Below the pieces are notes generated by a model. It was not told the DNA's origin. It saw nothing but the letters and a program-made list of their open reading frames with translations, and made no database searches. From Firmicutes bacterium UBA1393 (GTDB lineage: Bacteria > Bacillota > DTU025): DNA of 59,151 nucleotides. The translations under genes and the position numbers were made by a program. The first letter of the stretch is position 1. Each line of letters starts with the position of its first letter. The stretch lies in the NCBI GenBank assembly GCA_002305255.1, contig DBQN01000083.1:28642-87792 (forward strand), in the 5' to 3' direction. This document shows positions 10,329 through 41,250 of the stretch, in pieces.

Positions 10329-10790
10329 TTAGTCCACCGGCACCGTTATCGACACAGGCGCGAGGCCAACACCCATGGGGGTGAAGGTAAACCTCACATC
10401 AGTCACTATGTAAGAGCCGTCGTCAAAGCAGTTGACTGACGGGATGACGCCATCGCCCACAGTTGCCAGATCAAGGACGCCCACTTTGTAGTTGCCCACC
10501 GGCAACAGCGTGACGTCTATGTCGAACTGATCCTCCTCACCCGGTTCAAGCGTGATGACATATCCGTCAGTGTCGAGCCACTCGACGAGCATCGACGTGT
10601 ACTTGCCGACTCCGAGGTAACCCGTAAGGGTAAACGTGAACTCACCTTCCAGCGGCACACCTGACTGGACGACGATGTAATCGGACTCGTACTCCACTGA
10701 TACGCTGGCCCTCAGGCACCCGGTGGTCATCGATGCAAGAACCAGGACTGCGATGATTAGCAGCCCGCGCACAATGTTCGATCTCTTCAT
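10329..10790 (-). CDS. hypothetical lipoprotein (paralogue of 9774..10265)
   Basis: 153 aa with SD GGGAGG and lipobox MTTGC. The N-terminal region after the Cys resembles its neighbour: VSVEYESDYIVV..FTFTLTGYLGVG versus VVVEFDPNPIDV..VFVTLTLNGVGV. Confidence 0.6.
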   Translation of the reverse strand: MKRSNIVRGLLIIAVLVLASMTTGCLRASVSVEYESDYIVVQSGVPLEGEFTFTLTGYLGVGKYTSMLVEWLDTDGYVITLEPGEEDQFDIDVTLLPVGNYKVGVLDLATVGDGVIPSVNCFDDGSYIVTDVRFTFTPMGVGLAPVSITVPVD

Positions 10791-10875
10791 GGTATCAACC
10801 TCCCACTCATGAATAATAATGAGATGTTCGCGCTGCGCTTCAGTATTCGACGGTTCACATGAAATCCCTGCTATT

Positions 10876-38394: not shown

Positions 38395-39093
38395 TCAGCC
38401 GATCGCGGCGCCGCGGCTTGCCTCCGATCGCACCTCTTTCACCGCGGCGCGGTAGTTGAGGGCCCAGTGGACCATCCATGCGTAGACCAGCCCGTGCCGA
38501 GCCAAGACACCTAAGGCCGCCCCGGTTACCGTCGGCATGAGCATTGAGTAAGCCACCAATGCCCGCGGCGCTCCGGCCACCGCCATTGGCACGGCATGCA
38601 CTAGCCCGAAGACCACCGCCTGTAGCGGCACAGCCAGGGTCGGCCCTAAAACAACGGCAAGCCAACGCTGCAGGAGCCCTCTGAACAGGACCTCCTCTAG
38701 CAGCGCGCCTGAAGCGGTGAATGTCGCCGCCCTCATGCGGCGCAGCCGACGCGGGCTGTGCACCAGGGCCTGCCCTGCACCGCCGGCGCTCACCCCGGCA
38801 CGTTCCACCCACAGGCCGCACTCTCGCAGCAGCCCTGCTCGACAACGGTCGCCCGCCATCGACGCAACCACATAGACGGCGATTGCGCCCATCACCGCGC
38901 CAGCGTTCATCGGGCCGACAATGCCCAGTGCCACGACGGGGTCCCCTCGAGCCAGGGCCAACGCAACAAGTACTGACACAAGCAGCACGTCACCGATGTC
39001 GAACCCGGACGAGGCCCATCGCACCCATGTGTGCAGACGCACAAGCACGCTTATGGCCACTATAGATAGTACAACGACGGTTCCAGATCGCAT
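38395..39093 (-). CDS. CPBP-family intramembrane glutamic endopeptidase (CAAX protease/Abi family)
   Basis: Polytopic membrane protein with LEEVLFRGLLQ (EExxxR) and FGLVHA (FxxxH) motifs. The start was set to ATG 39093 (SD AAAGGA 9 nt upstream), which overlaps the rSAM stop by 34 nt. Confidence 0.8.
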   Translation of the reverse strand: MRSGTVVVLSIVAISVLVRLHTWVRWASSGFDIGDVLLVSVLVALALARGDPVVALGIVGPMNAGAVMGAIAVYVVASMAGDRCRAGLLRECGLWVERAGVSAGGAGQALVHSPRRLRRMRAATFTASGALLEEVLFRGLLQRWLAVVLGPTLAVPLQAVVFGLVHAVPMAVAGAPRALVAYSMLMPTVTGAALGVLARHGLVYAWMVHWALNYRAAVKEVRSEASRGAAIG

Positions 39094-40619
39094 CTGATAC
39101 GGTCCTTTGCTTTGGCGAAGTTCTCTTCCGCGCTGCACTCATCATCCCACGACCAGAGGATGCTCTGAAAGAACACGCGGTAACCGTTGCACCTTGGGTC
39201 CGGGCAGTTGATCCTGCCACTCGTCGAGAGGGCGGCGGCCCTGCAACCTCCCCCGCAGAAGTAGCGCACGGTGCACCGCCGGCATTGAGGCATCAGGTCG
39301 ACATCAGGAAGGGGCCACGGACTGAATACGCCCTGCTCCTCAAGGAGCCGCTTCGCCTTGTCGATGGTCAGCGGCAAGTGCGAATCCATTAGCAGGTGAC
39401 ACGGGTACACCAGTCTGCTTGCCGACACTGCCAACACCGCGCTTCCGGCCCCGCATCTGTCGCGGGGAACTACGAAGCCTACCTCATCAAGGCTGACGAT
39501 CTCCGGCGCTCCAGCCCGTCTCCAGCATGCCTCCATGTACTCTACCATTGAGAAGGCGAACCTATGCCCACTATCGACCTTGATGGGAGAGGCGGCGCCC
39601 GCACCGACGGGCTGAAACAGGCTGATGTGGCACTTCACTCCTAGAGACGAGCTGAACTCCCATATGGCCTCTGTATCATAAGTGTTCAACAGGCCAACTG
39701 TCGGCACCAACTCGACATTCGGCACACCTGCGCTGACAAGGTTTTGCACACCCTTTACAGCAGCGGCATGGGATCCAAGGCCTCGTATGCTGTCGTGCCG
39801 CTCTGGATCAGGCGACTCAATGCTCACCTGAACGTCACAGCCTAGTTTGGCAAGACGTTTCGCCAGGCGCCGGTCGATCCGTGTTCCGTTCGTTGCCAAC
39901 ACCACCCGCGTGCCGGGCACCGATACAATGCTGATCAGATCCAGCAGGTCTTCCCTCAGAGTGGGTTCACCGCCGGTGACCACGACTTCAGCCGGCTTGA
40001 TCGTTGCCACCCACTCAGCAGATGACCTTGCGTGCCATTTGTCAGCCTCCTCATGACAAAAATCGCGGTAGCAGGTTCTACACCTGAGATTGCAGCTCTC
40101 ACTCACAACAAAGTGGATCTTCTTCGGCCTGAATGGCCGGATTCCCTGACCTGCACACTGCGGGTCAACTGAGCCGTCGCCATGATCTGCTTGGATTTCA
40201 TCATCGCCGTAGTCGTCACAGCACTTCTCTCTGATCCTGCCCATCACGGCCTCTCTGATCCCTGCTGGCTGCACGTACTCCTCCAAGAGCTTCATCTCAC
40301 GCAGCCGCTCAAAGGTGTTCAGCATGTCGCTCACAGCCTCGCTGCCGTGTTCTGCCGCCAGCCTGTCGCACACGGTTCCTACGCTCACGCCCAGTGCGTC
40401 GCTGCAGTAGCGTCCCGCCTCCGAAGAGAGCCGCGCCCACGAGCCCTTCCCAGTGTTGATGATCAGCATGCCATCGTCATCCTGGATGAGCCGGGAACCG
40501 TTAGATAGCCTGTACACCGTTGATCTATCCGGCACTGGCACGGTATCACTCCTCCCCCAATACATGGCGAGGAACCAACCGCATTGCGATGGTTGGTTCC
40601 TCTCGAGGTCAACGCTCAT
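39060..40619 (-). CDS. radical SAM / SPASM-domain peptide-modifying enzyme with N-terminal PqqD-like RRE
   Basis: 519 aa with a CNLRCRTC (Cx3Cx2C) motif. The C-terminal Cys clusters (CGAGS..PCH, CRRCTVRYFCGGGCRAA, CPDPRC) are typical of SPASM. Residues about 35-125 (VYRLSNGSRLIQDDDGMLIINTGKGSWARLS...LLEE) look like a PqqD-type leader-recognition element. Confidence 0.85.
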   Translation of the reverse strand: MSVDLERNQPSQCGWFLAMYWGRSDTVPVPDRSTVYRLSNGSRLIQDDDGMLIINTGKGSWARLSSEAGRYCSDALGVSVGTVCDRLAAEHGSEAVSDMLNTFERLREMKLLEEYVQPAGIREAVMGRIREKCCDDYGDDEIQADHGDGSVDPQCAGQGIRPFRPKKIHFVVSESCNLRCRTCYRDFCHEEADKWHARSSAEWVATIKPAEVVVTGGEPTLREDLLDLISIVSVPGTRVVLATNGTRIDRRLAKRLAKLGCDVQVSIESPDPERHDSIRGLGSHAAAVKGVQNLVSAGVPNVELVPTVGLLNTYDTEAIWEFSSSLGVKCHISLFQPVGAGAASPIKVDSGHRFAFSMVEYMEACWRRAGAPEIVSLDEVGFVVPRDRCGAGSAVLAVSASRLVYPCHLLMDSHLPLTIDKAKRLLEEQGVFSPWPLPDVDLMPQCRRCTVRYFCGGGCRAAALSTSGRINCPDPRCNGYRVFFQSILWSWDDECSAEENFAKAKDRIRCDLEPSLYYL

Positions 40620-40717
40620 CCAATTGTGATGACATAGCCCCAGAACGGGAAGGAGACGCAGATGCCGTTGATGGACATGTTCGCTCTAGGGGCTCGGCCT
40701 GCCAGGATCCTGAACAC
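40616..40717 (-). CDS. candidate RiPP precursor peptide (33 aa; possibly 48 aa if it starts at ATG 40762)
   Basis: Not in the ORF track because it is shorter than 60 aa. SD GGAGGTGA lies 5 nt before GTG 40717 and the product is MFRILAGRAPRANMSINGICVSFPFWGYVITIG. The stop TGA overlaps the rSAM ATG (ATGA). The in-frame upstream ATG 40762 would add MICACRPHIIAEVIK but has no SD. Confidence 0.6.
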   Translation of the reverse strand: MFRILAGRAPRANMSINGICVSFPFWGYVITIG

Positions 40718-40789
40718 CTTGATCACCTCCGCAATGATGTGTGGCCTACACGCACAAATCATGGTCGCGCTTGCAGCCACATGTTACCA

Positions 40790-41188
40790 TCATTCGCGGC
40801 TTTCCTGCACCATCTGAATGGGCGAATTTGCTAGGTGAATCAAGGATTCTGACACGCCGATGAGGCCCGACGCAAAGGAATAGGTCACCGCCATGCTCCT
40901 GTTATTGACCCCCAGCTTACGGAAGATCGACCTGACGTGGGTCTTCACTGTGTTGACCGACACGAACAGCCTTGACGCGATGGCGGTATTGGACAGGCCC
41001 TGTGCCATCAACTCCATCACGCGCTGTTCACAACTGGACAGCTGAGGCACCGGCCCTTCGTGAGCCAGCAGCCTCGCCAGAGCCGCAACTGAGGACCGAC
41101 CGTCGCCCCTGGCCCCATCCCTGTTCATCGCAGCCAGAATGGGGCACATAATCGTTGCAGCGCTCTTGTCAGATGCTGATTCAGACAT
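40790..41188 (-). CDS. LuxR/GerE-family HTH transcriptional regulator
   Basis: 132 aa with the C-terminal region LSSCEQRVMELMAQGLSNTAIASRLFVSVNTVKTHVRSIFRKLGV, a classical GerE-type HTH. Confidence 0.85.
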   Translation of the reverse strand: MSESASDKSAATIMCPILAAMNRDGARGDGRSSVAALARLLAHEGPVPQLSSCEQRVMELMAQGLSNTAIASRLFVSVNTVKTHVRSIFRKLGVNNRSMAVTYSFASGLIGVSESLIHLANSPIQMVQESRE

Positions 41189-41221
41189 TGGCTTCCCCTC
41201 CAGCCATCAACTTCCAGAATC

Positions 41222-41250
41222 AGCATAACATTGAAGCCAGCCCCCGTCAA
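41222..41250 (-). promoter_or_regulatory. candidate promoter for the LuxR / peptide / rSAM / CPBP unit
   Basis: Minus strand reads TTGACG (41250..41245), a 17 nt spacer, then TATGCT (41227..41222). Confidence 0.45.

Follow-up and report, generated by a model that had tools for sequence, protein, structure and literature searches.

Hundreds of uncharacterized families of peptides made by the ribosome and modified after translation (RiPPs) that depend on radical S-adenosylmethionine (rSAM) enzymes have already been catalogued. The system considered here is a cassette of four genes from Firmicutes bacterium UBA1393 (Bacillota; DTU025), carried on the minus strand of a 59,151-nt stretch of contig DBQN01000083.1 (GenBank assembly GCA_002305255.1, positions 28,642 to 87,792 of the forward strand), which is referred to as the window and whose numbering is used throughout. 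Among described systems, the skf operon of Bacillus subtilis (skfA-skfB-skfC-skfEF-skfGH) has the same order of genes: a precursor, an rSAM enzyme with an N-terminal peptide-binding domain and SkfC, an Rce1-like protein of the CPBP family and a putative protease of the skfABC sactipeptide operon (PMC8172795, PMC9415966). The epipeptide operon epeX-epeE-epeP(-epeAB) of the same species also joins a short precursor, an rSAM enzyme and a membrane protease, EpeP, which is thought both to cleave and to export the rSAM-modified peptide (PMC10885120), and its product is small and membrane-acting. CteB, the maturase of the SCIFF peptides, and the PapB-type ranthipeptide enzymes have in common with the enzyme of the cassette an architecture made of a RiPP recognition element (RRE), an rSAM core and a SPASM region, and the thioether formed by CteB starts from a Cys thiol. 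The sactisynthase StsB joins Cys to the alpha-carbon of Gly, and the StsB/BlaB sactipeptide enzymes form one similarity group with MftC of mycofactocin biosynthesis (PMC10288494). Finally, bacterial CPBP sorting proteases are predicted to act beside an invariant, probably modified, Cys (bioRxiv 10.1101/2023.06.07.544157).

The cassette consists of genes for a GerE/LuxR-type regulator, a 33-residue peptide, an rSAM enzyme and a CPBP membrane protease, in that order. An earlier inspection of the DNA alone, here called the sequence-only reading, had singled it out as four co-directional and closely packed genes, and each feature that it described was located in the sequence. On comparative evidence, the four genes form an operon for a small modified peptide, and we put the probability that the cassette is genuinely a peptide-modifying rSAM system with the 33-residue peptide as its substrate at roughly 0.78. 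It is predicted to act like a sactipeptide- or SKF-type RiPP system while standing outside every defined family, and an undescribed class is possible. The first claim that it resembles no rSAM-RiPP family stands in so far as neither the peptide nor the enzyme falls into a named family, but the gene order of skf and a motif of the mycofactocin precursor are shared. Beyond skf, the literature search found no paper that joins an rSAM RiPP enzyme with a CPBP protease.

The precursor peptide gene

A Shine-Dalgarno sequence, GGAGGTG (40730-40724), precedes a GTG codon at 40717, exactly 72 nt past the stop codon of the regulator gene, and this codon opens an open reading frame (ORF) of 33 codons and a stop that ends at 40616; this is the small ORF behind a 72-nt gap that the sequence-only reading had described. 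In the window, the encoded peptide reads (f)MFRILAGRAPRANMSINGICVSFPFWGYVITIG. The family of the adjacent rSAM enzyme comprises 17 protein clusters (E up to 1e-45, mostly with more than 90% coverage), beyond which lie generic SPASM enzymes; neighbourhoods were fetched for six clusters, and GTDB species genomes and metagenome contigs were then scanned with the family alignment. Including the window, 48 loci share the order regulator, peptide, rSAM enzyme and CPBP protease, and they contain 26 distinct nucleotide versions of the peptide gene. Among these loci are some from 16 genomes at GTDB species level and from about 20 contigs of metagenomes, their source is uncultured Bacillota, and identity of the rSAM enzyme to that of the window falls to 29%; most of them come from what we take to be anaerobic-digester series of metagenome-assembled genomes.

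Whether a conserved short ORF always precedes homologues of the enzyme, a question raised at the outset, is answered by a co-directional 33-codon ORF between the GerE and rSAM genes in every family locus that has upstream DNA (48/48). It is always 33 codons long, starts with ATG or GTG, ends in T-[IVL]-G-stop and is preceded, 6-8 nt 5' of the start codon, by GG[AG]GGTG (GGAGG in locus L023; such handles denote individual loci). Six residues are invariant, G7, C20, F23, W26, T31 and G33, and the WG pair is nearly so. With the exception of Trp26, which has a single codon, the invariant residues are written by two to four synonymous codons. Across the 26 DNA versions, variable sites at codon positions 1, 2 and 3 number 25, 21 and 31 of 32, and this excess at the third position argues that the sense frame is translated; the antisense ORF that spans the gene is closed in 4 of the versions. 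Such a pattern indicates strong purifying selection over the whole peptide, and the recurrence of the ORF is, by the same comparison, far beyond chance. The 33-codon ORF was absent from all non-family rSAM loci that were fetched. A relative of the enzyme with 31% identity (L113), considered as a family member, has no peptide, GerE or CPBP gene and was placed outside the family. Taken as a whole, the comparative genomics identifies the short ORF as a real coding gene that tracks the enzyme.

Within the peptide, a strand-like motif, [VIL]-[SA]-[IV]-[DN]-G, closes a basic N-terminal half, and positions 16-20 carry I[D/N]GxC, for which the deepest subgroup has precisely IDG[FY]C. The leader probably spans the basic residues 1 to about 18 and the core the hydrophobic residues from about 19 to 33, with I[D/N]GxC at their junction.

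An exhaustive phmmer search of 1.84 billion representative proteins returned only six ORF calls of the peptide, all of them N-terminally over-extended, and a word-indexed protein search with the 54-aa ORF gave no matches. No Pfam or NCBIfam model matches the peptide, and 19 variants compared with NCBIfam at E up to 10 yielded a single spurious match. Where the sense ORF has been called, it is stretched to 54-72 aa, so that the real 33-codon gene is missed by gene callers, and in L001 (4727-4981, minus strand) and L004 (4732-4926, minus strand) the annotation places over it an ORF of 64-84 aa in antisense that matches no Pfam model. These antisense and over-extended calls make the family invisible in protein databases.

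The maturase, the protease and candidate control elements

The third gene is found on the longest ORF as 40619-39060 (519 aa), and its ATG overlaps the stop codon of the peptide gene as ATGA. The overlap noted in the sequence-only reading is thus literally present, but translational coupling through it is not borne out. Homologues begin, by alignment, at the equivalent of residue 27 of the 519-aa ORF; residues 1-27 are predicted to be disordered in its AlphaFold2 model (predicted local distance difference test, pLDDT, below 50); and behind GGAGGAG (40555-40549) lies a GTG in the same frame, at 40541, from which the protein would have 493 aa, just as many as the closest homologue (P0002, 71% identical). 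For these reasons, we regard the overlap as an artefact of the longest ORF, and the true start is probably GTG 40541, 74 nt past the peptide stop, so that the gene runs from 40541 to 39060.

These 74 nt contain a stem-loop (40602-40569) with a 12-bp stem, GAGGAACCAACC/GGTTGGTTCCTC, a 10-nt loop and no U-tract. It is kept in 12 distinct sequences, where 93% of cells are paired as compared with 27-58% in controls with the 3' arm slid, and it shows compensatory changes at four pairs. Many A-to-G changes in the 5' arm preserve G-U pairing, which favours a structure at the RNA level over a DNA palindrome. In the deepest subgroup, another hairpin, rich in GC, takes its place. RiPP operons usually rely on a stem-loop between the genes for precursor and maturase to make more precursor than enzyme.

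The rSAM core of the enzyme is recognized by PF04055 (4.2e-21), and its CX3CX2C motif (CNLRCRTC; C176, C180 and C183) is invariant in 17 homologues. The same holds for seven SPASM cysteines (C389, C407, C446, C449, C455, C459 and C477), arranged as CX17C ... CX2CX5CX3C ... C with a Gly four residues ahead of the second Cys, which fits CX9-15GX4C ... CX2CX5CX3C ... C, the seven-Cys pattern by which the domain is defined; both motifs had been reported from the sequence alone, and both are present. Along its C-terminal part, the enzyme can be aligned with the SPASM segments of CteB, PqqE and anSME. The segments GCGxG...AV..G..YPCH and CxxCxxxxxCxxxC align closely with CteB, and the extra upstream Cys of anSME is absent, as in CteB. 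That absence leaves an open iron site, which in CteB binds the substrate thiol.

In front of the core, the PqqD-like leader-recognition segment that the first inspection had proposed is upheld at the level of the family. The Pfam PqqD model matches 6 of 13 N-terminal domains (best 6.1e-9), the profile of this domain has the lasso-peptide RRE TfuB1 as its best PDB match (E=0.01), and the AlphaFold2 model built on the family alignment (pLDDT 79) places four strands and three helices in residues 34-108 (pLDDT about 90), followed by a disordered linker (120-161) and then the rSAM barrel. The best fold matches of this model are RRE-containing peptide maturases, CteB (5.6e-16), SuiB, SkfB and TigE, ahead of anSME, and in the PDB profile search CteB (1.9e-26) is followed by SkfB (3.5e-22) and PqqE (1.9e-20). 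Two points count against the assignment: Pfam detects SPASM in only 2 of 17 members, so that this part depends on the Cys pattern and the alignments, and the N-terminal domain of the window protein, taken alone, has no PqqD match, the RRE being drawn from homologues and predicted fold. By its motifs and predicted fold, the enzyme nevertheless has the architecture of an RRE-rSAM-SPASM peptide maturase.

Of 67 rSAM matches in NCBIfam, the best 25 were listed, and among these no model reaches its cutoff: StsB scores 99 against 625, NirJ2 98.6 against 500, MftC (TIGR03962) 94.6 against 265, WgkB 81 against 650 and PapB 59.9 against 340, with AhbD at 90.6, so that the enzyme falls outside the named thioether-maturase families StsB and PapB. 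Public names of family members are limited to 'radical SAM protein' and one mislabel, 'PqqE'.

A CPBP gene always lies directly 3' of the rSAM gene. In the window, it probably starts at ATG 39093 and ends at 38395 (232 aa), which makes the overlap with the rSAM gene, correctly noted from the sequence alone, one of 34 nt, as in the 71%-identical relative. The protein matches the Rce1-like model PF02517 with 39.2 bits (cutoff 22.4; 8.9e-10), and the EExxxR, FxxxH and HxxxN motifs that define CPBP proteases are invariant in 15 family members, in agreement with the first identification from EExxxR and FxxxH. By analogy with SkfC and EpeP, its most likely role is removal of the leader, either within the membrane or at it. 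Against a processing role stands the fact that CPBP proteins beside bacteriocin genes are often immunity proteins, and a 2023 review of RiPP leader proteases does not mention CPBP or CAAX enzymes.

The regulator (41188-40790, 132 aa) carries a GerE domain (PF00196, 2.2e-18) with its C-terminal helix-turn-helix (HTH) at residues 49-103, and the same domain was found in all relatives checked. Its short N-terminal segment bears a conserved CP[IL]L-like motif before the HTH. A GerE-domain gene stands immediately 5' of the peptide gene in every family locus; in L026 it encodes a response regulator with REC and GerE domains, and in L023 a protein with a long N-terminal extension in which Pfam finds no receiver domain. 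The sigma-70-like promoter described ahead of the regulator gene, TTGACG-17-TATGCT, is present at 41250-41222 with a TG-extended -10 and is a match to consensus only; a consensus scan found two such sites in 3.4 kb, where 0.8 would be expected.

A second element (40829-40768), part of which is the 3' coding sequence of the regulator gene, precedes the peptide gene. It contains an inverted-repeat region at 40829-40806, which the window spells CCATtcagATGG and more distant loci ACCCgtttGGGTAaTACCC, a motif of the form TGnTAnnnT that resembles an extended -10, TGGTAACAT, at 40789-40781, and an invariant box, TGCAAGCG, at 40775-40768. The box lies 58-69 nt 5' of the peptide start in every locus of groups 1 and 2 (165 nt in L011), the reading frame of the element differs among loci, and the element is not present in the deepest subgroup. 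RNAalifold, applied to 14 loci, gave a consensus of -2.55 kcal/mol with no compensatory pair and no conserved RNA fold; the one pairing that recurs is between the GGTGA of the Shine-Dalgarno sequence and a TCACC some 110 nt upstream, again with no compensatory changes, and Rfam places no family over the element or the hairpin in the window or the intergenic regions. This lack of conserved structure speaks against a riboswitch, and the weak energy and missing compensatory changes led us to take the element as acting at the DNA level. It is a candidate promoter (extended -10) for the peptide gene combined with an operator for the adjacent regulator, a reading against which it must be said that it is based on patterns only. 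Other readings made by eye, as a sigma-54, sporulation-sigma or GerE-box site, were abandoned: sigma-54 would need another spacing, and matches to the GerE and NarL consensus sequences are inconsistent among loci.

Related systems, the proposed crosslink and its alternatives

The steps that the cassette would carry out can be set in order. The GerE-type regulator would control a promoter and operator at and just past its own 3' end, and the 33-residue precursor would be translated from GTG 40717 as a putative leader and core, its transcript exceeding that of the enzyme by virtue of the stem-loop behind the peptide gene. The maturase would grip the leader with its N-terminal PqqD-like RRE and, by 5'-deoxyadenosyl radical chemistry and with two auxiliary Fe-S clusters, install one intramolecular crosslink in the core. 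That crosslink may be a thioether of sactipeptide or ranthipeptide type, from the sulfur of Cys20 to a carbon of Gly33, Thr31 or Gly27. The CPBP protease would then cut the leader at the membrane and may release the product or cyclize it head-to-tail. Such processing would explain both the loci that have no transporter and the C-terminus fixed at an invariant Gly; it may be added as speculation that a fixed C-terminus ending in Gly would suit head-to-tail closure as in SKF.

The parallel with skf goes beyond the order of the genes. SKF bears a single thioether from Cys to an alpha-carbon, the precursor stops exactly at the end of the core in both systems, SkfB is the second PDB sequence match and a top-tier fold match, and an ABC ATPase and permease found in L023 and L026 parallel skfE and skfF. 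The differences are equally clear. The match to SkfB covers the rSAM core only (profile 118-360) and ends before the SPASM cysteines. SkfB has a twitch domain with one auxiliary cluster, unlike the full seven-Cys SPASM region found here. SKF has a 26-aa core with three Cys and a disulfide and is cyclized head-to-tail, whereas the cassette peptide has 33 aa, one Cys and no sequence similarity to it; the thioredoxin SkfH and SkfG have no counterpart in the cassette; and control lies with an adjacent GerE regulator rather than with Spo0A/AbrB. Orthology to Skf is also not seen in sequence: among the NCBIfam matches listed (best 25 of 67) there is no SkfB or SkfC model, and the SKF peptide was compared by its description (PMC8172795).

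SCIFF precursors measure about 45-50 aa, have a conserved tail that contains six Cys and are unrelated to the single-Cys peptide of the cassette, and we know of no CPBP partner in SCIFF or PapB-type systems. The SCIFF peptide reported about 9 kb away is real: a canonical precursor, MNEKNTVHVRTIAVGNLKATASSGGCRECQTSCQSACKTSCTLGNQACKK, is encoded at 49684-49532 (minus strand) with its rSAM maturase at 49565-48141 (minus strand), so that two rSAM peptide systems lie within 10 kb. The CDMRCAYCFAGQGGFGG motif of this maturase recurs in an rSAM gene that lies directly 5' of the GerE gene in L027 and L028. StsB, which links Cys to the alpha-carbon of Gly, finds a possible parallel in the invariant Cys20 and C-terminal Gly33 of the peptide, but StsA forms a hairpin with three Cys and three Gly, and the RRE of that system stands apart as StsC (like MftB for MftC), in contrast to the fused RRE seen here.

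Provided that the cassette is a RiPP system, a thioether is the reaction that we tentatively favour, at somewhat less than even odds, because the peptide has no Cys other than the invariant Cys20, CteB is the top match, StsB is the top NCBIfam model, Gly33 and Thr31 are invariant, and the CteB-like segment is present. Several observations weigh on the other side. StsB, NirJ2, MftC and AhbD score nearly equally (91-99 bits) and far under their cutoffs, so that the chemistry is not separated by these models. Of the positions near the catalytic site highlighted in PMC10288494, numbers 1 and 5-6, a Tyr after CX3CX2C and a His-Leu after the PC motif, were read and do not set thioether formers apart from PqqE, which shares the His. 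F23 and W26 are as invariant as C20, which makes a C-C, C-N or C-O crosslink a serious alternative.

In that alternative, the same RiPP cassette would place a C-C, C-N or ether crosslink on Trp26 or Phe23, in the manner of cyclophanes and triceptides, streptide and tryglysin, or darobactin, and Cys20 would serve in recognition or cluster binding. Besides the two aromatic residues and the nearly invariant WG pair, SuiB, which forms a Lys-Trp crosslink, is among the top structural matches, WgkB scores 81 bits, near the thioether-forming models, and the I[D/N]GxC motif recalls IDGXC in the mycofactocin precursor (PMC5264612). Yet the core has no conserved Lys or Arg as a partner of the streptide, tryglysin or WprB type, and the top profile and fold match is the thioether-forming CteB and the top NCBIfam model a sactisynthase. 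The Cys of IDGXC in the mycofactocin precursor is not the modified residue, which counts for an aromatic crosslink; a lone invariant Cys in an otherwise Cys-free peptide is, on the other hand, typical of a donor residue. We hold an aromatic crosslink to be unlikely, though it is the main rival of the thioether.

The comparison with myxosortases suggests a further and bolder possibility, to which we give a little less credence still. MrtX, MrtJ, MrtS and eukaryotic Rce1 are of the same protease family as the CPBP protein and have the same three motifs, and myxosortase substrates share with the cassette peptide an invariant Cys beside a hydrophobic segment and an Arg-rich cluster; myxosortase cleavage is predicted to depend on prior modification of the Cys (bioRxiv 10.1101/2023.06.07.544157). 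The rSAM enzyme might thus modify the lone invariant Cys of a membrane-inserting 33-residue peptide and the CPBP protease cut beside it, in a physiological system, as opposed to an antibiotic locus, that is inherited vertically through the whole clade and forms a bacterial counterpart of eukaryotic CAAX processing. Its product may be a hydrophobic cyclic signal or membrane cofactor sensed by the GerE-type regulator, and the crosslink could be of an undescribed type, for example from Cys or Trp to the C-terminal Gly, with head-to-tail closure in addition. Myxosortase targets, however, are C-terminal tags (Cys motif, transmembrane segment and Arg cluster) on many large secreted proteins, whereas here the substrate is a free 33-residue peptide with an N-terminal basic cluster. 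Scores against the family models are 28 of 130 bits for MrtS and 19 of 75 for MrtJ, the order of the motifs is reversed, and the main text of the myxosortase study mentions no rSAM partner.

That the product is a housekeeping cofactor or membrane component derived from the peptide, like mycofactocin or PQQ, produced by a relative of MftC, trimmed by the CPBP protease and not secreted, seems to us improbable. Its best arguments are that I[D/N]GxC at positions 16-20 matches the start of the MftA tail IDGXCGVY (PMC5264612) and that MftC is third among the NCBIfam matches with full-length coverage. Strictly vertical inheritance beside obg, purifying selection on the whole peptide and the lack of a transporter or immunity gene in most loci would also suit it. 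But the MftC score of 94.6 is far under the cutoff of 265, IDGxC is followed by 13 other residues and the GVY tail that MftC modifies is absent, and the MftA hidden Markov model does not match the peptide. Linked to the cassette are neither genes of the MftD, MftE or MftF type (mftD, mftE, mftF) nor any for dependent dehydrogenases. Export is suggested in two lineages by genes for an ABC ATPase and an ABC-2 permease right after the CPBP gene, and a dedicated transcription factor next door would be more in keeping with a locus for signalling or for a bacteriocin.

Less credible again is an epimerase of the epipeptide or proteusin type that would make D-Ile, D-Val or D-Thr, with the membrane protease cleaving and releasing the product as in epeX-epeE-epeP. 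The order of precursor, rSAM enzyme and membrane protease parallels epeXEP, whose EpeP is thought to cleave and export (PMC10885120), the core is rich in conserved Ile and Val, and EpeE appears among the fold matches (E ~1e-7). It comes far behind CteB, SuiB, SkfB and TigE, however, has about 320 aa in its solved structures, aligns over only about 260-290 columns and leaves the N-terminal RRE region uncovered; EpeP is an M50 metalloprotease and not a CPBP protein, and the invariant Cys, Phe and Trp would be unaccounted for.

The notion that the short ORF is a regulatory upstream or chance ORF and that the enzyme acts on a tetrapyrrole (AhbD/NirJ-like) or a protein, for which speak NirJ2 (98.6 bits) and AhbD (90.6 bits) scores that match those of peptide-maturase models, the failure of nearly all gene callers to find the peptide and the antisense ORF called in some contigs, is scarcely tenable in view of protein-level conservation over 26 DNA versions with synonymous turnover and fixed Shine-Dalgarno, start and stop, an antisense frame closed in 4/26 and variability that fits the sense frame, a fused RRE that is a peptide-binding domain, NirJ/AhbD matches that span the rSAM/SPASM core only and lie far under cutoffs, and the absence of linked haem-pathway genes.

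Genomic setting, inheritance and meaning

The sequence-only reading took the cassette for an insertion among conserved genes, and this is a claim that did not hold. Relatives whose Obg is as little as 55% identical still have the genes for GerE regulator, peptide, rSAM enzyme and CPBP protease directly upstream of obg-nadD, with a Spo0B-like gene in between in L011. Identities to the window for Obg and the rSAM enzyme fall together (90/70, 81/49, 77/44, about 67/35 and 55/29 percent), and the GC content of the cassette, 0.575-0.64, is within the range of its flanks. The cassette is hence not a recent insertion, given that the enzyme tracks Obg and the GC content is unremarkable, and comparative evidence marks it as an old, vertically inherited feature of the clade. 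The genes 5' of it vary among relatives, and four deep members are not beside obg.

In the window, the only neighbours of the peptide and rSAM genes are those for GerE, CPBP and Obg, the last at 38284-36977 (minus strand), downstream of the CPBP gene. A transporter or immunity gene is absent from most family loci. Two deep-branching loci away from obg, L023 (5724-7644) and L026 (3713-5625), continue past the CPBP gene with genes for an ABC ATPase and a permease of the ABC-2 type, and by gene content these cassettes are a fuller, skfABCEF-like version. The Spo0B-like gene of L011 (6259-6948; SPOB_a and HATPase_c domains) lies between the CPBP gene and obg, an arrangement reminiscent of the spo0B-obg operon of Bacillus, so that, in one lineage at least, a sporulation-phosphorelay/obg locus opens with the cassette.

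On the 5' side, at 44805-41352 (minus strand), are genes for a Metallophos protein of 388 aa and a 769-aa protein with no Pfam match; they correspond to what had been called a DNA-repair-like module, and a WYL-domain gene occurs farther out in relatives. Outside the closest relatives (L001-L004), which alone retain the module, unrelated genes stand in its place, and for this reason it is not counted as part of the cassette.

Elsewhere in the window, a T-box leader (34771-34452, minus strand) stands upstream of an 834-aa gene resembling leucyl-tRNA synthetase (34396-31892), and the loop of its Stem III carries a 111-nt insertion that is a complete tRNA-Ala(GGC) gene at 34593-34518 (minus strand; Rfam tRNA 64 bits, also called by ARAGORN). 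To find a tRNA gene inside a T-box riboswitch is unusual. The nesting is seen again in L005 (T-box 10530-10849, tRNA 10705-10780), a relative with 77% Obg identity, and L027 and L028 have the same tRNA at the corresponding place, each locus ending before a T-box could show.

The precursor family is known so far only from genomes of uncultured Bacillota and metagenome contigs, and no curated model or gene caller recognizes the peptide. Without its chemistry, the cassette is a good lead for genome mining and not a surprise. With one Cys and only five other invariant residues to consider, it should be easy to learn where the predicted crosslink sits and of what type it is, and this could reveal a new linkage. 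The strict pairing of rSAM enzyme and CPBP protease also offers a tractable case for asking what bacterial Rce1-like proteases recognize, with a modified Cys as the cue as in the proposal made for myxosortases, and the CAAX-like reading, if true, would be the first identification of the Cys-modifying enzyme in such a bacterial counterpart. Deep vertical conservation and purifying selection argue for a part in signalling or membrane physiology rather than for a fast-evolving bacteriocin. Such inheritance beside obg is unusual for RiPP loci, and it hints at a role in signalling, the envelope or development.

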